Of a stretch of DNA of 64,000 nucleotides, positions 1,395-25,700 are shown one piece after another. The translations under genes were made by a program, and so were the position numbers. Below the pieces are notes generated by a model. That model searched no databases. It was not told where the DNA came from and worked only from the letters and a program-made list of their open reading frames with translations. The stretch's first letter is position 1. Each line of letters starts with the position of its first letter. The DNA is from Eledone cirrhosa (Eukaryota), in the NCBI GenBank assembly GCA_964016885.1, contig OZ024742.1:286006001-286070000 (forward strand), written 5' to 3'.

Positions 1395-2255
1395 GAGAGT
1401 CGGACACCATGCTTTGCAGCTTAGAGTTACGGTCCTTTACGGTCTGAGTTCAAATCCCACCGAGGTTGACTTTGCCTTTCATCCTTACGGGGTCGATAAA
1501 ATAAAGTACCAGTAACGCACTAGGTCGATTTAATCGACTTTCTCTCCCCTTCAAATTGCTGGCCTTGTGCCAATTATTAATGTTCGGCCAGGACCTACAC
1601 TAAAGCGGACTTACTAAATTTTTAGCAGGGCGGTGGATTGGCGCCGGATCAAATGCTTTGTGGCACAGATTTACGGCCCTTTACGTGCTGATTTCAAATT
1701 CCGGTGAGGTTAGCTTTGTCTTTCATCCTTACGGGGTCGATAAAATAAAGTACCAGTCACGCACTGGGGTCGATTTAATCGACTTTCCCCTCCCTCAAAA
1801 TTGCTGGCCTTGTGCCTATATAAGAAACCATTAAGGTTATTAATGTTAAGGACGGTGGATTGGCAGTATCGGTAGAGGATCGGACGCCATGCTTTGAAGC
1901 ATAGAGTTACGTCCCTTTACGATCTGAGTTCAAATCCCGCCGAGGTTAACTTTACCTTCCATCCTTACAGGGGTCGATAAAATAAAGCACCAGTAACGTA
2001 CTGGGGCTCGATTTAATCGATTTTCCCCTCCCTCCAAATTACTGGCCTTGTGCCTATACTAGAAATCATTGGTGGATTGGCAGTATCGGTAGAAAGTCGG
2101 ACGTTATGCAAAGAGTTACGCCCCTTTACGGTCTGAGTTCAAATCCCGTCGAGGCTAACTTTACCTTTCATCCTTACGAAGTCTATAAAATAAAGTACCA
2201 GTAATGTACTGGGATAATTGCTGGCCTTGTGCCAAAAGTAAAAGCCATTAATAAT
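1395..2255 (+). mobile_element. Head-to-tail array of four copies of the abundant tRNA-derived SINE (family S1)
   Basis: Each copy has an A-box-like tggcagtatcgg where the head is intact, B-box gagttcaaatcc, body gcctttcatccttacggggtcgataaaataaagtaccag and tail gctggccttgtgcc(...gaaac-att); copies at about 1395, 1628, 1849 and 2070. Confidence 0.85.
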
Positions 2256-2751
2256 TGTTTCTACTTTTATTCTGTATTTTTGTTGTTTCTTTTTATATTC
2301 GCGTTTCTTGTCTGTGGGAATCCCAGAGTATGGACGTCGACCATAGCCATAAGTAAATGTGGAAGCACGTGGGAGGATCCTTTTGTTCCCTTAAAGTGCG
2401 AGCTCTATGTGTTACTATGTCTGTGGCAGCACATGTATGTGTGTTTTCCCGCCACTATCGGTTCGTCTGAGTGAGATTATGAATGTTTTGTTTGAGCCCA
2501 TTGCCCCGCAACAATGTTGCTTCCTCTCTCCAGTTCTCCCTTTACATAAAGAAAAAGGGGGAAGGAGTTTTATAAAATACACGTGGAAGGGACCAGCTCA
2601 CGTTCTCATTGAATGGATATATATGTATGTATATGCTTATGTGTGTGTGTGTCGTGTATACACACACTCATACTGGTGTATGTGTATATCCATGTGTGTG
2701 TATGTATATATCTTAAAATGATATATTAAGACTTCTCTCTCATTCTATACA

Positions 2752-2834
<83 letters not shown>

Positions 2835-2982
2835 GCGTGTGTGTGCTGTTTATGGTTAAAGAGTTTGCTTCGGAAACCATGCGTGTTCGGGTTCACTTCC
2901 ACTGTGGAAACCGAAAGTGTGTGTACACATGAGTGTGTGTGTGTATATATATATATACATATGTGTGTGTGTATATATGTAT

Positions 2983-3251
<269 letters not shown>

Positions 3252-3965
3252 TCGTTTTAAGGACTGGGTGCTCTAAACCCTTGGATATTTACACCGAGTT
3301 TGTACTAATATATATATATATATATATTAGTATTGGTACTAACGATGTATACATGAATGTATGTACAGTATATTTGGCAATATACTGTATGTTTAATTAA
3401 AAAAATTAAAAACATTTAGAAGACCATTCACTGTGAATTTTAAAGTAGTGACTATGTCACCTTTTCTCGGCTCTTGTTTTACATTACCACTTTCAGCATA
3501 TAATGCTGAAACCGGTATTGTAAATAAATTAATGTTTTGATATTTCACTGAAAGAATCTCTTCAACATTTTCTATTGAAAAAAAATATTTTTCCTTTCTA
3601 CTATTTGTTTTTATATATATCAACTCGTGTGTTAATTTTCTACATTCGATATATACAGTATATATATATATATATATATATGAAAAGAGTCAGGACCCCG
3701 ACGGCTGAGCTCCGGCCGTTTCGACAGCTAGATCCGAACTGTCATATATATATATGACAGCAACAATTTCGATTCATTTCCAGTATTATATATACATACA
3801 TATCTATCTATCTATCTATTTATCTACACACACACACATATGGTGTGAAACATTAAGTTACTATTGGTTCACCAGTTTGAGGACTTGATGCCGGTGTGGT
3901 CTTGTACGGTGTGGTCTTGTACACAGTAGTTGGTATCCTTAAGAAGCGGAGTGTTAATAATGATA

Positions 3966-4141
3966 ATAATTGTTTCTATTTTAGGCACAAGGCCAGCAAT
4001 TACCCAGTGGTTCTTTATTTTATCGACCCCGTAAGGATGAAAGGCAAAGTTTACCTCGGCGGGATTTGAACTCAGAATGGCAAGGGCCGTAACTCTATGC
4101 GTCAAAGCATGGCGTCCGACCCTCTACCGATACTGCCAATC
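3966..4141 (-). mobile_element. SINE S1 copy
   Basis: Reverse complement of the S1 consensus with (AAT)n tail. Confidence 0.85.
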
Positions 4142-4302
4142 ATGAGTAGGAACAAGGTATCAACATATATAATGTATGTCATTCAGTAAATTACTTTTGG
4201 TGGTAGAATTATGAGCACTCGATACACAGGCATAATGTATATGAGAAAGACGATGATGTTTTGTTTACACATATTTATGTTTTTGTTCTGTATCAACCTA
4301 GT

Positions 4303-4350
<48 letters not shown>

Positions 4351-4396
4351 GATCGAGTATCGAAAAATCGGCGCACGAGTTCACGATAAACGAGAT

Positions 4397-4435
<39 letters not shown>

Positions 4436-4437
<2 letters not shown>

Positions 4438-4640
4438 CAAAGAGGGTGTGGTAAGATACCAGGTGGACCATAACGCACCAGAGTACTCAATACTTAGGGT
4501 AGTAGAGTTTGTAATAGGAAAAGAGTCAGGACCCCGGCGGCTGAGCTCCGGCCGTTTCAACGACTAGATCCGAACCGTTCGGATCTAGCTGTTGAAACAG
4601 CCGGAGTTCAGCCGTCGGGGGTCCTGACTGTTTTGCTATA
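4436..4640. mobile_element. F1 fold-back element
   Basis: Long arm plus inverted short arm centred at about 4576 (tagatccgaac-c-gttcggatcta); (TA)n on both sides. Confidence 0.75.
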
Positions 4641-4652
4641 TATATATATATA

Positions 4653-4806
4653 TATAATAATAATATATGTAGAAATAAACACAGTAAATTCTGCGTCTAA
4701 AATTACGAGGGTAGATTATACCACATGTGGTATAGTGGTATAATCTACCCTCGTAATTTTAGACGCAGAATTTACTGTGTTTATTTCTACATATATTATT
4801 ATTATA
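4653..4806. repeat. Inverted repeat with 72-bp arms and a 10-nt spacer
   Basis: 4653-4724 is the reverse complement of 4735-4806. Confidence 0.9.
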
Positions 4807-4871
4807 ATGCTCAGTATTTATACTTTGAGCTTGTTAATTGCAGGGTATCAATATGAGTTAATAACTCTATA

Positions 4872-4904
<33 letters not shown>

Positions 4905-5126
4905 GATTACACAAGTTTAAAGTTATGTTAAAACATTTAATCGCTGACAATTGTTTCTTCCAAACTAAGCTTGGAGTCCTCGGAGCATTATCAATGTTTG
5001 TACATATAATTAACCTCCTATTCAACTGAAGAATCATACAGATACATATATATTGATGTTGTGGACAACAGTTTACAGGGTGGAATAGATGCGACATATA
5101 TTATACGAGAATTTTAATAAATATAT

Positions 5127-5711
5127 ATATTTATTAAAATAACAGATTAAAGTTTAAGCAAAGAATTGCTGCTTTCATCCTTAACGGGATCTTCTGAAAC
5201 TAAAAAAGTCAATCTGTGAACGCAGAAGTAAATATTTCAAAAAACGTTGCAACCGAAGGAAGACAGGAAGACGATACTTTGGTTCGTGGAAACGTTCCCT
5301 GGCAAAGAACGAAAAAAAAAAAACGAAGATAATACGTCATTATTTGGTGCAGCGAAAACAATTACACGCGAAGACAAAACCACGTTTATGGTATAAATGA
5401 AGTCGTAGACTAATATTCTATTAGGTGGTTCATGGAGGACTTCATTTATACCATAAACGTGGTTTTGTCTTCGCGCGTAATTGTTTTTACTGCACCAAAT
5501 AATGACGTATTATCTTCGTTTTTTTCCGTTTTTTGCCAGGAAACGTTTCCACGAACCAAAGTATCGTCTTCCTGTCTTCCTTCGGTTGCAACGTTTTTTG
5601 AAATATTTACTTCTGCGTTCACAGATTGACTTTTTTAGTTTCGGAAGATCCCGTTAAGGGTGAAAGCAGCGATTCTTTGCTTAAAATTTAATCTGTTATT
5701 TTAATAAATAT
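5127..5711. repeat. Long fold-back (about 275-bp arms, 33-nt spacer) with degenerate HHR-like motifs near the outer ends
   Basis: 5127-5404 vs 5438-5711 are reverse complements with few mismatches; another copy of the arm end at about 59083-59197. Confidence 0.85.
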
Positions 5712-6102
5712 TTGCTCTACGGTTCTTATATATCTGATATATATTTATCATTATCGAGCCCTCTTTGCATTTTAGTCTTCAAATTTATTATTATTACTAT
5801 ATATATATATATATATATATATGATGAGAAATGAAAGGAGCTGTGTAGTTACTAAAAACAAGGCTTAGGATTGTGGTTTGGACGGAACAAAAGGAGAAAA
5901 GAAGAAAGAATCCTTCGTCAGCTGTAAAACCGCGATATACATATATATATATATATTGTTATACTTTGGGAGGGTCATTTTGCCAATAAGAAACACACGC
6001 ACCCACAGCTTTCACTTCAATTTATTATAATAAATTTATAAATTTAGGAATTTATAAATTTCCGGTTGGTTGGTTCCACAACCAGATGGTTGTTTATATA
6101 TT

Positions 6103-6145
6103 GTCAAAGTTCTTTCGTCACACATTCTGTGACCTCTTCAGTGAC
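6103..6145 (-). ncRNA. Minimal type I hammerhead ribozyme motif
   Basis: Minus strand GTCA-CTGAAGA-G-GTCACA gaatg TGTGAC-GAAA-GAAC-TT-TGAC: stem I GTCA/TGAC, 6-bp stem II, CUU site. Confidence 0.6.
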
Positions 6146-6197
6146 TGGGGATTCTTTTCTTTGTTTTGTGCCTCTCTTTTGTTCTGTCCTACGCCAT

Positions 6198-6472
6198 CTT
6201 GTTTTTGTGTGTGTGTTGTGTGCTCAGTCTGCGCATGCTCCACATCCGGGTGTCTGTGTGTGTTTATATTCGTTTATTTATTTGTTTATTTACATGTTAC
6301 CGGTTGGTTGTTTGTCCTATGTGCATGTGTGTTTTCATTTTGTCCACATAGAACAAACAACCAACCGGTAACATATAAATAAACAAATAAATAAACGAAT
6401 ATAAACACACACAGACACCCGGATGTGGCGCATGCGCAGACTGAGCACACAACACACACACAGAAACAAAAT
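6198..6472. repeat. Fold-back (about 125-bp arms) on the 5' side of the 6103-6145 HHR
   Basis: 6198-6323 vs 6345-6472 are reverse complements. Confidence 0.85.
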
Positions 6473-6856
6473 GTAATGATACATTTAAAAAAAGACGATA
6501 TTATATATAAACTGCATTAGGAGAAAATTAGTGACAGAAAATTAGTATGTTTATTTAAGCAATCACCACTGGAAGAGTGTTGACATCACACACTCTCTCT
6601 TTCTATATATATGGTAGTTGAAGTGATGGTGGTGTGACTATATGCATGCCTATTTCTATATGCATTTATGTGCGTGTGTAAATATGGCTTCACACACACG
6701 TGTATGTGTGCGCGCGCGCAAGTGAGTATTCATTTATTTGTTAAGGTTATAAACAACCTTTTGTTTTGTTTTTTCAACAGGTGAAAATTTCAATATAGAT
6801 TGTCTCGTTTCACACAAATAAATGGTCACTTTAGGAAATATATATACACACACACA

Positions 6857-6966
<110 letters not shown>

Positions 6967-7273
6967 AAACAATTTACCTTTTTCAGGCATGAAAATATAT
7001 TTCTAGTCTTTAATGTGAGATTACAAGGGACAAACAATTGTAACATTCCCATAGTCTGTCTGAATGGGACGTATTACTGGTGATGATGTTTTTGTTGTCG
7101 TTTTTAACTTCAAGGTCAGTCCTCATTAATTTGACCTACGTTTAAAGGAATTCTAGCTATTTTTCAGCGAAAAACACAACAGTAAATATCAAACCTACCT
7201 GCTATTTCAAGTGTTAATCTAATATATTCCTTCCATATGCTGTACCGATAGTGTTATTTCTGTTTACCTTTTA

Positions 7274-7360
<87 letters not shown>

Positions 7361-7851
7361 CATGATTTTGTCTTAAAGAATAAAACTAAATTGTATTTAC
7401 ATGATATATTTTTTTTTGCATAGAATAAAGTTGAGAATTAGTGTTGACATATAAGAACGAAATAAAAATGAAGTAAAAATGTGAACAAAAAAAAGGATTA
7501 AAATAATATATATTTTTCAAATGAGGTCCCCGACGATATGTGGCTTTAAGCTATAGCTAAATTAAGTCCAGTACTGACTATCATTCTTACACACACCCTA
7601 CCACGAATATGGGAACCTCTACGTTGTCACTGGACGTGCTAGAAAGTAGTAGCCATGTATCCCTCAAATTGTATCACATTGTCTATAAAAAAATGTAGAG
7701 GTTATATAGTATGAGGTGACACGTCTAAAGAATAGCTAAAATTTCTTTGATCATAGGTCTGGTTAATTAGGATTAACCTGGGGCTAAACAAGACCAGCAG
7801 TGATAAGGATACGTCACATTCACATGTAAATTGAGCTCTGTATTTTAAAAG

Positions 7852-8742
7852 ATAATTGTTTCTACTATTGGCACAAGGCCAGCAATTATCCCAGTACATT
7901 ACTGGTACCTTATTTTATCGACCCCGTAATGATGAAAAGCTAAGTTAACCTCGGCGGGATTTGTATTTTAAAAGATAATATTCATACTTTAACATAGACT
8001 TTACCAGGAAAGGATAACTGGACAGATTTTACGCGTAAAACCAACCCGCAGGAGACAAAAAAGTAGACAGAGAACAAGGTGGTTGGGTAACAACCATGAG
8101 TTTGGCTAGTCTCACTTGAGGAGCCAACAGGATCAGCTGGAGACGGTTGCTTCTAACAGGATCTACTAGAAGTAGTGTTTGAGGACCCTGCCCCCCCCCC
8201 TCCCGAAATAAGTGGGCGAAGAAGAAGAAAAAGAAAAAGAAAAAGAAAAAGAAAAAGAAAAAGAAAAAGAAAAAGAAAAAGAAATATTTATATCTACCTT
8301 ACACACCTCATACTAAAAATATTTCCCATATAAGACAATAACTGAGTCGTTATGTTGTCGATAGTCCGGCTAGAAATAATGATTTCGACATTAGACACAA
8401 AGCTAGTTAGGTGGGGGGAGGGGGCTTAAACCGACCCCTGTACTTGATTGGAACTTTTTTATCGACCTCGGCGAAATTTGAACTCAGAACGTAAAGAGCT
8501 GTAACCAAACACTACGAAGGAATTTCTGCCAATCAACCGCCCTAGAAACATCTGCGAGAAATAATTGTTTCTACTTTTGGCACAAGGCCAGCAATTACGC
8601 AGTACAATACTGGTACTTTATTTTATCGACCCCGTAAGGATGAAAGGCAAAGTTAACCTCGGCGGGATTTGAACTCAGATCGTAAAGGGACGTAACTATG
8701 CTGGAAAGCATGTCCGACCCTCTACCGATACTGCCAATCCAA
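7852..8742 (-). mobile_element. Cluster of three S1 SINE copies or fragments (about 7852-7962, 8375-8545, 8560-8742)
   Basis: Reverse-complement S1 body and tail motifs. Confidence 0.75.
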
Positions 8743-9488
8743 CGACCAAATTTCCTTCAAATTATACCACACTGTCGTTAGAAAAAAAAAATAAAGAGAC
8801 TAGTGGCAAGGTTGGATTTAGACCTTGGAGGGGCCCGGGGCATTTCAGGTTTGAGGGGGCCCCTGATACACAAAAAAAAAATAGAATACACAGCACACCC
8901 CCATCCACACACCCTATTTTACATATCAAAATTAGCTTGGCGTAAATAGTTGGACTTGAAAAGTTATACATACAAGTATTAAATTAAAAAATTCTAACCA
9001 TCCTAAAACTAAAAAGCCCGGCTGGGGGCTCAAATAAGAAGCTACGGATGTCGTTGTTTTGAAAGGCTTATTTTTCAGTGACTTCTCAATCAGCCGACAC
9101 AAACCTACATTTGGCGCAAAATCAATTTTTAACATTCACATGACCTCTACCGACCAATCAAAATTGTTTTAACCACAAGAATTTTTGCAACACGAATTGG
9201 CGCGAAACTTATTTTAATACATCTGGAGCCACTTTTTTCACATAAAGCAGGTAGAATTTCCAAAACTAATCAGATTAGAGCAAACATCACGGCGCTCTAT
9301 CTCAACATTATTTTTGAAAAGCATTAGAAATGCGCAACCAGTAAAACTTAAAACCAAAACTGAATACTAACCAATACTATTACTAATTTTTACTTATTCC
9401 TAATTAAACTATTTTTCACTGGGAACAATTTGTCAGCATTTTCTTTTCCGTTTACCAATATATCATAACTCGTGTGTTACACCTCTAT

Positions 9489-12590: not shown

Positions 12591-12840
12591 CTTGATCACC
12601 TTGACCGACCAGTCTGTCGGGCACCAATCGGCGCCGCTGGTCACAGCTCGTCGTGCTGTTTTAGCCATAAGATAAGGCCATCCCACTGGCTGGGCGGGCA
12701 GGCTGGTACTCTACAGCTGAGTAAACTGGAGCAACGTGAAATAAAGTGTCTTGCTCAAGGAAACAACACATCACCCGGTCCGAGAATTGAACTCACAACC
12801 TTTCGATTGCAAGCCCAATGCTCTAACCACTAAGCCACAT
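12587..12840 (-). mobile_element. tRNA-derived CORE-type SINE (family S2)
   Basis: Minus strand gtggcttagtggttagagc...gagttcaattctc + ccttgagcaagacactttatttcacgttgctccagt; near-identical plus-strand copy at 47775-48026. Confidence 0.85.
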
Positions 12841-12850
12841 ATATATATAT

Positions 12851-12969
12851 GTTTACGACCATATCACGCTGAAAACACCGGTTCTCGTCTGATCACCGAA
12901 GTTAAGCAACGTCGAACCTAGTTAGTACTTAGCTGGGTGACCGCTTGGGAAACCTAGGTGCTGTAAGCA
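12851..12969 (+). rRNA. 5S rRNA-derived sequence, probably the head of a SINE3 or a pseudogene
   Basis: Full about 119-nt 5S-like sequence with ctcgtctgatc, A-box agttaagc, agtactt..ctgggtgaccgcttgggaa, ending ggtgctgtaagc; only TTT follows, then a SINE-like tail. Confidence 0.85.
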
Positions 12970-20905: not shown

Positions 20906-21619
20906 TACAGTGGGTGGGTGGATGGTTGGATGGATCGGTAGATGGGTGGTTGGATGGATGAATATGTGGTCAGGAGTACGGACGGATGGCTATACGAATG
21001 GATAGATTGAGGGATGGAAAGTGGGGTGGATTGAAGGTGGGCTGGAGAAAAATATGGAGGAATAGGAAGGTGGCTGGTTGGATTGATGGAAGGATGAGTA
21101 GACAGGTGCGTGAAAGAATATATCAATAAATTGTTAAATGGATGGATCGATACATAGACAGATAAATGGAGGGACGGTGTATTGAAGGGGACGGGCGTTT
21201 GGATGGATCGATGGATGATTGGTTGTACAAGAAGAGAAGCTATATGAATGATTGGTTGAACAAGAAGAGAAGATAATTGAATGATTGGTTGAGCAAGAAG
21301 AGAAGATACATGGATGTTTGTATTGATAGAAGGATAGAAAGGGGGGGGGGGTTCTTCCCGAGAGTGCTTTCGTCAACAGAGGTTTGTGATGGTAGTTTGT
21401 AGAAATGTAAAATAGAAACAGGCCAGTCATTTGCACCAGTAAGTGTTTCCAGTTGGACGACATGTGAGTTATACGTCACGAGTCAACTGGCAGCCATGCT
21501 AGTCAATGAGAAAAGACGACACAGATTCTCTCAGTAATTAGGTTGTCACTAGTAACGGAAGCAATTTCAGATATACATACATATATACATACAAATACAC
21601 ATATACATACATATGTGTG

Positions 21620-21665
<46 letters not shown>

Positions 21666-21677
21666 CACACACATGTG

Positions 21678-21796
<119 letters not shown>

Positions 21797-21870: not shown

Positions 21871-21920
<50 letters not shown>

Positions 21921-21923
<3 letters not shown>

Positions 21924-22372
21924 AAAATTAGAATTGGCGCTCTGAAATAGCGATATATATATATGAATGTATATAGAGTGTATTTTGCAATACACTGTAT
22001 GCTTAATTAAAAGCATTTCGAAGACTTACGCTATTGTTTTAGAGTAGTGACAGTCTCATTTACTTTAATTTTCAGCAAACAGGGGAGATAAAGCTGACAG
22101 AGCCCTGTTTCGTACTTTTTGGTACTTATCAAAGCTAAGTACTCCACTTGTTTGCTGAAAATCATGAATGTTTGTTTCTTATAGAATTCTAGTAATAATC
22201 AGGAACTGATTATACAGAGCGTTGCCGGTCAAGCAGAAATTGAAAATTAGAATTGGTGCTCTGAAATAGCGATATATATATGAATATATATATAGTGTAT
22301 TTTGCAATACACTGTATGCTTAATTAAAAGCATTTCAAAGACCTTACGCTATTGTTTTAGAGTAGTGACAGT
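21921..22372 (-). mobile_element. Retrozyme-like element: about 319-bp unit, about 1.4 copies, one HHR
   Basis: About 134-bp direct repeat 21921-22054 / 22240-22372; (TA)n at left; HHR at 22092-22136. Confidence 0.75.
22068..22162 (-). ncRNA. Extended type I hammerhead ribozyme, U3-A8 core variant
   Basis: Minus strand GGAG-TACTT-AGCT-TTGATAA-GTAC-CAAAAA-GTAC-GAAA-CAG-GGCT-CTG-TC-AGCT-TTAT-CTCC, closed by ttttcagcaaaca/tgtttgctgaaaa; GUC site. Confidence 0.8.
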
Positions 22373-22509
22373 ATATATTTGAAGTTCTAGTTAAACTTTA
22401 ATTAGTTACCTACCTAGCTGTGTGTGCTTACACACTTTACAAATTATTCCCTGTGATTGTTTCATATGTTTATTTTATATGTATATATATATGTCAATCA
22501 ATTTCTAGT

Positions 22510-22726
22510 TGACCATAACGCACCAAAGTACTCAATACTTAGGGTAGTAGAGTGGGTAATAGGAACGAGTAGGACCCCGACGGCTGAGCTCACGCCGTTT
22601 CGACGGCTAATTCTGGACTAAAAAAAAAAAAAAAAAAAAAAAAAATTAAATTTTTTTTTTTTTTTTACTTCAGAATTAGCCGTCGAAACGGCTTGAGCTC
22701 AGCCGTCGGGGTCCTACTCGTTCCTA
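22510..22726. mobile_element. F1 fold-back element with A-run/T-run centre
   Basis: Long arm, An...Tn, inverted short arm, then (TA)n. Confidence 0.75.
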
Positions 22727-22749
22727 TATATATATATATATATATATAA

Positions 22750-25700
22750 TTTGAGCAACTCTGAATCAATAGATGAAATATGAATCTGCGAGCTACCAAG
22801 CACCCATGTGAAGCGCCAACCCAGAGACCCTTCCCTACGAGTGTCGACAAATGCCCAAAACTCCGAGTTGGTACCATCAATGTAGGCTCAATGAAAGGAA
22901 GAGCAGGAGAAATCGCAGAAATGCTAGAGCGAAAGGAAATTGATGTATGCTGTGTGCAAGAGACTAGATGGAGAGGAGAGTCTGCCAGAGTCCTGGTAGG
23001 AAAAAGTCGTTGCTACAAATTTTTCTGGGTGGGAAATGACGATGGGTAGATAAAGTAATCTCAGTGTACAGGGTAAATGTAAGAATCATTAAACTCAGAC
23101 TAGTCCTGAATAAAACAATTACCACAATAATATCAGCTTACGCACCCCAATCGGGACTGCCAGACGAACTTAAGGATAAGTTTTACGAGTCCCTAATGCA
23201 CACTACTGCCCTAACAGACGACAATGACTTCCTAATCATCGCAGGAGATTTTAACGGACACGTAGGTAAACACTGCGACGGCTTCAATAGCGTACATGGA
23301 GGCCATGGGGTTGGCACAAGGAATGAGGAAGGATTCAGACTTCTAGAATTCTGCGACGCCAACGACATGTCGATATGTAACACAAACTTTAAAAAACCCG
23401 ACAACCACCTGATCACCTATAGATTATGGGAGCACTCTAGTCAGATAGATTTTATCCTCATCAGAGGACGTGACAGATGGACAGTCGTAAACACAAAAGC
23501 CTTCCCTAGTGAGGAATGTACATACCAACATAGCTTAGTTGTCAGCGACCTCACGGTCAGAACTAGACGAGCCTGGAAACAGAGGCCAACCTGGAGAAGA
23601 AAGATCTGGAAGCTGAAAGTCCCCTCAACCAGTAACAGATTTAAAGATATTTTACTCAACGCCTACGACAGTAAAGAAGAACAGATAGAGACATTTAATG
23701 TAGAAGAGAACTAGGATTTCCTAAAAAATAATTTACTAGAGGCGACGGATGAGGTCTGTGGCTGGAGTAAGACCTCAAGCAGGAGGAGAGTGACTTGGTG
23801 GTGGAACAATAAGGTAGATGAAGCAGTTAAGGCCAAGAGACAGGCATGGAAAGAATGGAAGAACGGGGGGAGCAGGGTACATTACATAGAGACCAAGAGG
23901 GAAGCTAGGCGACAAGTATACTTAGCTAGGAGTGAAGCAGAGGATAGAAAATTCAAGCATGTTTTGCAACGTGAGGACCAGAAACAGGAGGTATTCAAGA
24001 TTGCGAGGCAGTGTGTCAGAGATAGTTGTGATGTCATTGGAGAGAAGTGTATCCGGAATGATAAAGGTGAGCTTGCCCTCACAAGTGCTGAGAAGAAAGA
24101 TGCATGGAAGAGTCATTATGATAGATTACTAAATGAAGAGAATGCATGGGAAGTAGAGACCCTACCCCAAGTAGACCCTATAGAGGGGCCAGCAGTACAA
24201 GTCAGCAGCAGCGTAGTAAGTAAGGCAATCAAAGATATGAAGATGGGGAAGGCAACCGGTCCATCGGGTATAGCTGCCGAGATGCTGAAGGCATCTGGGT
24301 CTGTAGGTCACACTATAACCACACGTATTGTTAACGAGGTAATACTAGAAGGTGTCATACCAAAAGATTAGTGCAGTAGCATCATTGTCAACTGCTACAA
24401 AGGTAAAGGCGATGCACTAGATAGAGGAAACTATAGAGGTATAAAGTTGATGGACCAGGTCATGAAAGTAACAGAAAGAGTTATAGCACAGTTGATTAGG
24501 GACCGGGTGAAAATAGACGAGATGCAATTTGGGTTTGTACCAGGAAGAGGCACCACTGATGCCCTCTTCCTTGTGAGGCAATTACAGGAAAAGTACCTAG
24601 CTAAAAGTAAGCCACTCTACTTGGCATTTGTCGACCTTGAGAAAGCCTTTGACAGAGTTTCACGTGCTGTAATCTGGTGGGTTCTTAGAAAACTAGGAGT
24701 AGATGAATGGCTTGTGAAAGCGGTACAAGCCATGTATAGGGGAGCAGTCAGCAAAGTTAGGATTAGTAATGAGTATAGCGAGGAATTTAGCGTATAGGTT
24801 GGGGTCCACCAGGGCTCTGTTCTTAGCCCCCTCCTGTTCATCATAGTCCTGCAGGCAATAACGGAGGAGTTTAAGACAGGAAGTTTAATTAAGAATGTAG
24901 GCTTCACATGCAGCAGCTGTGCTGAAACAGCAAGCAGCAAACAGCCACAGGAAACAAGTACCACCAATCTCTGGGAGGGCTCTGTAGAAACAGTAGACAG
25001 CTTCTGCTACCTAGGTGACCGAATTAGCAGCGGAGGTGGGTGTTCAGAAAGTACAATAACTAGGGTAAGAACGGGATGGAAGAAGTTTAGGGAACTACTA
25101 CCACTGCTAGCTGCAAAAGGTTTCTCCCTAAGAATGAAAGGCAGACTGTTTGATGCGTGTATCCGAACAGCGATGTTGCATGGTAGTGAGACCTGAAGGT
25201 GGAAGACTTACGTAGATTAGAGAGAAACGAAGCCTGCATGCTCCGATGGATGTGTAACAGTAATATACGTGAACGACAAAGCATAAATGAATTGAGAGAG
25301 AGACTGAGCATAAGAGGAATCAAATGCTGTGTGCAGGAGAGGCGGTTGCGCTGGTATGGACATGTGATGCGTATGAAGGATGATAGCTGCATAAAAAGGT
25401 ACAGAGCACTAGAAGTTGATGGAAACCGCGGAGTGGGGAGACCCAAGATGACCTGGGATGAGGTGATAAAAGCCGACCTTACCCAATTACACCTCTCAAA
25501 GGCAATGACACACGACCGTGACTTCTGGCGTCACGCAGTAATACAGAGTACCCGACCTCCCATGGGTACAAGCTGAAGCATATAGACAATATGCCGCCAC
25601 ACCTGCCACCGCAAGGTGGTCGGGAAGGTGCCACGGCAAAAAAGCACCCAACCCACACTGTAAAGTGGACGTGTAGGCGCCACGAAAAAGCACCCAGCAC

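Follow-up and report, generated by a model that had tools for sequence, protein, structure and literature searches.

The 319-bp repeat unit and its hammerhead motif

The window, i.e., the whole 64-kb stretch of DNA analysed here, contains at 21921-22372 on the minus strand 1.42 units of a 319-bp repeat, designated family A. The family A unit is non-coding, has a GC content of 34% and carries one type I hammerhead per unit. The copy in the window holds a single ribozyme and has its long 3' end at 21921, adjoining (TA)24.5 at 21873-21921. Its terminal redundancy, 21921-22054 against 22240-22372, comprises 128 identical bases of 134 and 133, respectively, at a spacing of 317-319. The unit of ~319 bp, the redundancy of ~134 bp and the adjoining (TA)n, all three given in the initial annotation, are present. 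The 5' end abuts a piece of another repeat, family D, head-to-head at 22373, with a few bases common to both. The features of the insertion are listed below.

21873..21921, no strand: (TA)n target and 3' flank (sequence and locus anatomy)
21921..22372, minus: 5'-truncated copy of family A, 1.42 units, one ribozyme (sequence, repeat comparison)
21921..21952, minus: 3' tail, ~30 bp past the internal TA run of the element, the long of two fixed 3' ends (locus anatomy; tail of Penelope-like elements in PMC8557442)
21921..22054, minus: terminal redundancy, 3' copy (repeat comparison)
22240..22372, minus: terminal redundancy, 5' copy, a partial tandem unit (repeat comparison)
22373..22507, plus: family D repeat, 5'-truncated piece, head-to-head with the 5' end of the element (genome matches)

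Family D targets TA, contains a TA run of its own and has a short tail, and inverted copies of it occur. It gave 1,276 first-look candidates, and its top matches were 98-100% identical.

The segment 22069-22161 is confirmed as a type I hammerhead by sequence, with putative catalysis. The core boxes, A15.1-U16.1, an NUH site and a type I arrangement of the three helices were all found, and the minus-strand elements quoted earlier for this motif, including the 13-bp outer helix, were located as claimed.

22069..22161, minus: type I hammerhead and enclosing 13-bp outer helix (sequence, fold, Rfam, covariation alignment)
22161-22149/22081-22069, minus: outer helix, 13 bp (sequence)
22145-22142/22087-22084, minus: distal stem I (sequence)
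22139..22141, minus: UAC in the internal loop of stem I, predicted partner of loop II (alignment to UAC in the Rfam HH9 consensus; docking presumed)
22136-22133/22095-22092, minus: proximal stem I (sequence)
22126..22132, minus: catalytic core box U3-U4-G5-A6-U7-A8-A9, with U3 = 22132 and A8 = 22127 (sequence; family-wide matches)
22112..22125, minus: stem II, loop CAAAAA; U-A/C-G covariation of pair 10.2-11.2 within family A (family comparison)
22111-22108, minus: GAAA (sequence)
22097..22108, minus: helix III, in the majority of family A copies a perfect palindrome of 12 nt; one loop base differs here (copy comparison)
22095..22096, minus: predicted cleavage site 3' of GUC, C17 = 22096 (sequence and hammerhead numbering)

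The base that differs in helix III lies in its loop, GGCU, a minor variant of the AGCU found in the majority of family A. Proximal stem I has four Watson-Crick pairs followed by two U.U oppositions, against six pairs in the HH9 consensus. A descriptor open to any Watson-Crick pair at 3-8 gave one match in the 64-kb window (22132, minus strand) and none in 200 shuffled windows. The Rfam match is to HH9 (RF02275), with which the motif shares type I topology, UAC in loop 1 and CAAAAA as loop 2. The docking elements, previously described as retained, do align to the HH9 consensus, and docking itself would be expected from this alignment. Unlike HH9, the motif belongs to a mobile repeat and not to a conserved amniote locus, and it scores 24.7 bits (E 2.8e-4) against a gathering score of 52. 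A scan of the whole 64-kb window at gathering level did not find the hammerhead, which agrees with the statement that standard searches miss it. Rfam miRNA matches at ~21570-21720 and 22550-22740 were rejected as simple repeats and a long hairpin, and all were below gathering.

The 3-8 pair in family A and its sister families

Positions C3 and G8 form a tertiary pair in the hammerhead core (PMC3884650), and Perreault et al. (2011, PMC3088659) report a natural covariation from C3-G8 to U3-A8 in several hammerheads, for which they mention earlier proof of in vitro activity. Approximately 1,300 minimal U3-A8 motifs, missed by the standard descriptor, were recovered via the Cercyon Penelope-like elements (PLEs) of Schistosoma mansoni (Cervera and de la Pena 2014, PMC4209133). 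The escape of U3-A8 cores from CUGANGA searches, put forward in the initial annotation, holds for the present family; as a general observation it had already been published in these two papers.

In the genome of 3.0 Gb the ribozyme region gave 1,882 first-look candidates, of which 40 were scored. A 30-nt pattern with U3-A8 had 480 exact matches, while the same pattern with C3-G8 had none genome-wide, and any base but U at position 3 gave three matches. When seven core positions were left open (the core-blind pattern), 308 matches were obtained. The first 100 listed, comprising contig C1 and part of C2 and counted by hand, included 97 with U3-A8, two with C3-A8, one with U3-G8 and none with C3-G8; 88 of them had the core UUGAUAA. 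Copies with C3-A8 include L035 and L037. In four public sequence sets, which are contigs of unrecorded kind from a single study, no variant at or above 10% was found at 22132 or 22127, while the stem II partners 22124 and 22113 both vary. In one of these sets, X4, contig depth is ~398 over the ribozyme region only (22043-22161, 10 differences) and ~45-135 over the rest of the unit, an excess which is not readable as expression since the kind of sequence set is unrecorded. Among the public sets recorded as containing the sequence, none was listed as RNA.

The exact counts, the core-blind sample and the constancy of 22132 and 22127 indicate that U3-A8 is the state of the amplified template and not a product of decay. 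The earlier reading of U3-A8 as a compensatory state was thereby borne out; in these counts other copies of the family do not carry C3-G8, as they would if the two changes had arisen independently as decay. That the window holds a decayed C3-G8 ribozyme with two chance changes of its own has as its sole point the low Rfam score, and is refuted by the 480 matches against none, the core-blind sample and the lack of variants at or above 10% at both positions in the four public sets; we give it a practically negligible probability.

Two related families, B and C, were reached via diverged matches in loci L026 and L015. Family B has the core CUGAGGA and gave 2,500 first-look candidates; among the first 100 of 253 matches listed, 92 had C3-G8 and none U3-A8 by hand count. 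Family C combines a CUGAUGA core with U10.1.U11.1 and a 6-nt palindromic helix III, and keeps the outer helix with a different sequence. All three families retain every core base other than 3 and 8. In a FastTree phylogeny of the 30 units which passed the extraction filter (20 A, 7 B and 3 C), A and B each formed one clade, with support of 0.91 and 0.85, respectively. Identities in this set were 94% within A, 77% between A and B and 59% between A and C, and C was used as outgroup, as assumed from its distance. Since the related families B and C keep C3-G8, and with C as outgroup, the swap to U3-A8 most likely arose once, on the family A stem, as judged from these sequences.

Family B (L038-L067) lacks G10.1-C11.1; its stem II starts with A-U or U.U, depending on the subfamily, and the remaining pairs of this stem covary. 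Family C (L068-L097, L199) has a unit of 312 bp, with copies 99-100% identical and some with inverted parts, and one of its arrays contains 22 exact ribozymes at 312-bp spacing. This very young family is probably the best suited of the families for expression tests.

For covariation, 25 A and B ribozymes were aligned, 21 of them distinct, and 98.4% of 501 cells were paired. Among the distinct rows the 3-8 pair was U-A in 17, C-G in four and unpaired in none. Both sides have changed in four pairs, i.e., 3-8, 10.1-11.1, 10.2-11.2 and one pair of the outer helix. Four compensatory pairs were also reached in 105 of 500 shuffles, and each rests on one or two kin-shared events, so the covariation is supportive rather than statistical proof.

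Folding energies, which leave out tertiary docking, point to a competing structure. In the predicted minimum of the window ribozyme the 5' strand of stem I together with U3-U4-G5 pairs with the 5' half of helix III, and helix III itself has a predicted probability of 0.02. Relative to the ensemble the active fold is 2.8 kcal/mol higher, and 5.6 kcal/mol higher with C3-G8 substituted in silico; the medians for 14 majority-type family A copies are 3.6 and 6.5 kcal/mol, respectively. With this misfold of core and helix III as predicted ground state, fast cleavage at low Mg2+ becomes uncertain, and the C3-G8 'rescue' proposed in the initial annotation may fail since C3-G8 is predicted to double the folding penalty. 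No natural dimers were found by a strict scan, and a relaxed scan gave four, of which two favoured a double-hammerhead fold over two monomers: L179, with two intact ribozymes (0.7 against 15.3 kcal/mol), and L030 (5.9 against 18.5 kcal/mol). The double fold was not favoured in L021 (16.6 against 10.2 kcal/mol) and L027 (28.5 against 17.8 kcal/mol). From these models ribozyme activity is likely, but it may be modest or dependent on dimers.

Insertion anatomy and Penelope-like elements

The anatomy of family A insertions was taken from 29 loci of the core-blind list (30 were selected and one duplicate place was dropped), comprising 50 segments. An adjacent inverted and 5'-truncated part was present in 19 of the 29 loci. 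All but three of the segments end at one of two fixed points ~30 bp apart, 23 inside the internal TA run of the unit and 24 ~30 bp beyond it, and in 39 segments a TA run lies beside the 3' end. Only four segments contain two ribozymes. Copies longer than one unit continue into another unit and not into an ORF. The family A tandems, a check for which had been suggested earlier, include L179 and the 8-kb array L033; both contain two consecutive ribozymes, which the window copy does not. The ribozymes of L179 are both intact, while L033 is decayed, with five lenient ribozyme matches, most of them with changes. Arrays of about two dozen pure units exist among the retrozyme families. Eighteen non-inverted 5' ends were examined, 17 of them distinct, and five were joined to another TA-targeting element (L001, L019, L030, L034 and L169). 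Paired matches 2.9 kb and 7 kb apart on C1, considered as full PLEs, turned out to be separate insertions and a tandem array.

This is exactly the anatomy described for PLE insertions: partial tandems, an inverted 5'-truncated partner, a tail of 30-40 bp at one end and a bias towards microsatellites (PMC8557442). The retrozyme-type unit proposed from the window is supported by our results; the PLE-type anatomy had no place in that proposal. With Neptune and Nematis PLEs (Craig et al. 2021, PMC8557442) family A shares 5' truncation, partial tandems, the inverted partner, the tail and the (TA)n bias. It differs from them by the lack of an ORF, and homology of the A unit to any PLE pLTR was not found among the matches listed for 50 GIY-YIG loci. 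These loci, inspected after scoring the best 150 of 10,597 GIY-YIG candidates, are a small part of the PLEs present in the genome.

One of them, L128 (G000:C1:145866500-145876499), is a full-length PLE of Neptune/Nematis type. Its ORF of 938 aa (5809-8622, minus strand) lies between two repeats, with ribozymes near 9437 and 4458, and shows a reverse transcriptase (RT) match (E 2e-6, just under the Pfam cut-off), a GIY-YIG match (E 2e-6), DKG, YLDD and a CxxxxCxxC linker, the latter being a mark of Neptune/Nematis (PMC8557442). The pLTR repeats carry a minimal hammerhead with U3-A8 and palindromic helix III, which has 6,506 exact matches in the genome; the first 100 listed all have U3-A8. Copies of the L128 family have short and long 3' ends at (TA)n, as in family A, and the last seven letters of the long end are identical in the two families. 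A further minimal U3-A8 motif, of different sequence, follows a GIY-YIG ORF in L122.

In L198 (G000:C1:173727000-173736999) two A units and an inverted PLE of the L128 family occupy 1549-6350, with (TA)n on both sides. The A units end at the left (TA)n and are joined to an inverted 5' part of the PLE, 95% identical to L128; the other PLE part begins within 27 bp of the junction and ends at the right (TA)n. The junction lacks a TA spacer and consists of a 27-bp inverted piece of the A tail with an overlap of 2 bases. From this single case we infer one insertion event, in which the enzyme switched from retrozyme RNA to PLE RNA; the alternative is a nested insertion at the exact boundary. The L128 PLE family appears to be the best candidate for a helper of family A.

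PLE protein matches lie near six of 133 A, B and C loci, and in the three of these that were followed A was not a terminal repeat of the PLE. The PLE ORFs beside A in L034 and L148 are not bounded by A. An A match at a distance of 4.3 kb from the ORF of L128 proved to be an independent insertion, L128 having its own pLTR ribozyme, and a family C ribozyme match to the PLE loci L130, L133, L137 and L140 belongs to a short nested element and not to the PLE end.

Proposed origin, related systems and neighbouring features

We classify family A as a non-LTR retrozyme, i.e., a non-autonomous element of PLE type, with family-fixed U3-A8. The ribozyme motif, the fixed U3-A8, the C3-G8 sisters, the tandem and inverted copies, the two 3' ends and the (TA)n targets are read directly from the sequence. 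The locus in the window is a truncated, single-ribozyme copy of a non-coding 319-bp family with a U3-A8 type I hammerhead. This family is probably a non-LTR retrozyme which owes its copying to a PLE, namely to the RT and GIY-YIG endonuclease of that element. Read-through transcripts of tandem copies would cut themselves after GUC and release the ~319-nt unit, either as monomers aided by docking of UAC onto loop II or as double hammerheads via the palindromic helix III. The released unit would be circularised or left multimeric. The PLE enzyme would then nick (TA)n and copy the RNA for more than one round from each strand of the cut, which would yield partial tandems of 1.1-2 units, inverted partners and head-to-head hybrids like the one in the window. 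The window copy cannot make a circle alone, since it has only one ribozyme. In the last step, U3-A8 would preserve the tertiary pair between 3 and 8. The misfold of core and helix III is predicted to be weaker by ~3 kcal/mol with U3-A8, and this may have led to the fixation of U3-A8. This step is weak, since family B was amplified with C3-G8 (predicted penalty of 4.6 kcal/mol in five copies) and the misfold did not stop its spreading.

The main competitor is a PLE which mobilises linear or multimeric RNA with no circle, the hammerhead being weak or vestigial and U3-A8 the result of drift in one master. It would account for the predicted misfold of the window ribozyme and its weak proximal stem I, and for the wide spread of B, whose predicted penalty is larger and whose stem II begins with A10.1-U11.1 or U.U; in addition, Naiad PLEs spread without hammerheads (Craig et al.), and the minimal hammerheads of metazoan PLEs cleave poorly in vitro (PMC4209133). 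However, the changes at 3 and 8 are complementary, a comparison of A, B and C shows the same for stem II and the outer helix, every other core base is kept in all three families, and a second lineage in the same genome, that of the L128-type motif, is also fixed for U3-A8. We therefore consider a vestigial hammerhead improbable, although it is the strongest of the competing explanations. Less probable still, and only a slight chance in our judgement, is that an autonomous PLE as yet unfound has the unit as its pseudo-LTR, the observed copies being the 5'-truncated ends of this PLE. The insertion anatomy would suit such an origin, and the 50 GIY-YIG loci inspected leave room for it. Against it, copies that exceed one unit continue with a further unit instead of an ORF, an ORF with RT and GIY-YIG between pLTRs was not found for family A, the scarce PLE proteins nearby do not use A terminally where followed, and pure arrays reach about two dozen units.

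An extended version of the preferred reading, a PLE-copied retrozyme, holds that the active lineage crossed a two-mutation valley in the core because U3 loosens the folding trap, and that the hybrid insertions name a U3-A8-bearing PLE as the copier. We put this forward tentatively and regard it as rather unlikely in full. If true, it would provide direct genomic evidence for the partnership of retrozymes and PLEs, and, from nature, a polarised case in which compensatory change at the active site of a ribozyme can be tested.

Non-LTR retrozymes were defined by Cervera and de la Pena (2020, PMC7229834), and PLEs have been called 'likely candidates' for their mobilisation (PMC7761336). Arguments on how animal retrozymes move still rely on co-occurrence and on trees of pLTRs (PMC7761336), and so does the case for a PLE origin in a 2026 bioRxiv preprint (10.64898/2026.07.22.740005), in which one of nine predicted Xenopus retrozymes cleaved in vitro and the available text of which makes no mention of inverted partners or tails. 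Since most copies of family A show PLE anatomy and one hybrid joins it to an identified PLE, the partnership becomes testable. Like the metazoan elements of PMC7229834, family A has a non-coding tandem unit of 150-450 bp with GC below 50%, a type I hammerhead with loop 1 and loop 2 elements, monomers to multimers and co-occurrence with PLEs. It differs from them in the U3-A8 core, in a 4-bp helix III which is also a 12-nt palindrome, and in having inverted partners and 30-bp tails instead of clear target-site duplications. With the Cercyon motifs (PMC4209133) it shares U3-A8 covariation, escape from the descriptor and PLE context. Those motifs are minimal, without helix III or a defined loop 1, whereas family A has the full type I form in a non-coding tandem unit and C3-G8 sister families which polarise the change. 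The natural hammerheads of Perreault et al. (2011, PMC3088659) also have U3-A8, and in what is accessible of that paper no high-copy retrozyme family is described. Reports of a full type I U3-A8 retrozyme family, or of hybrid insertions of retrozyme and PLE, were not found in a search of mainly open-access main texts. The core swap alone will not surprise a specialist; what goes beyond it is the polarity given by families B and C, a second lineage with U3-A8, and the hybrid of L198. Families A, B and C, of different ages and with C3-G8 or U3-A8, are a ready series for the study of catalytic base-pair exchange, and descriptors limited to CUGANGA would overlook some 7,000 or more U3-A8 motifs of this genome (480 + 6,506 exact).

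Several further features were recorded in the window. At 22559-22727 there is a long hairpin with 77-bp arms of 96% identity and A and T runs in the middle of the element. Small and common, this element is found in many loci, mostly as inverted pairs in TA runs, and the starting point of its copies hardly varies. A full hammerhead core was not found in it, only an apparent 3' half-hammerhead (GAAA, a long helix III and GUC). At ~22870-23711 on the plus strand lies the start of the ORF of a non-LTR retrotransposon, with an apurinic-type endonuclease (PF14529, E 7.5e-6, just under the cut-off). A 5S rRNA gene (103 bits) is located at 12851-12969 on the plus strand, back to back with a weak tRNA-like match at 12776-12839 on the minus strand.
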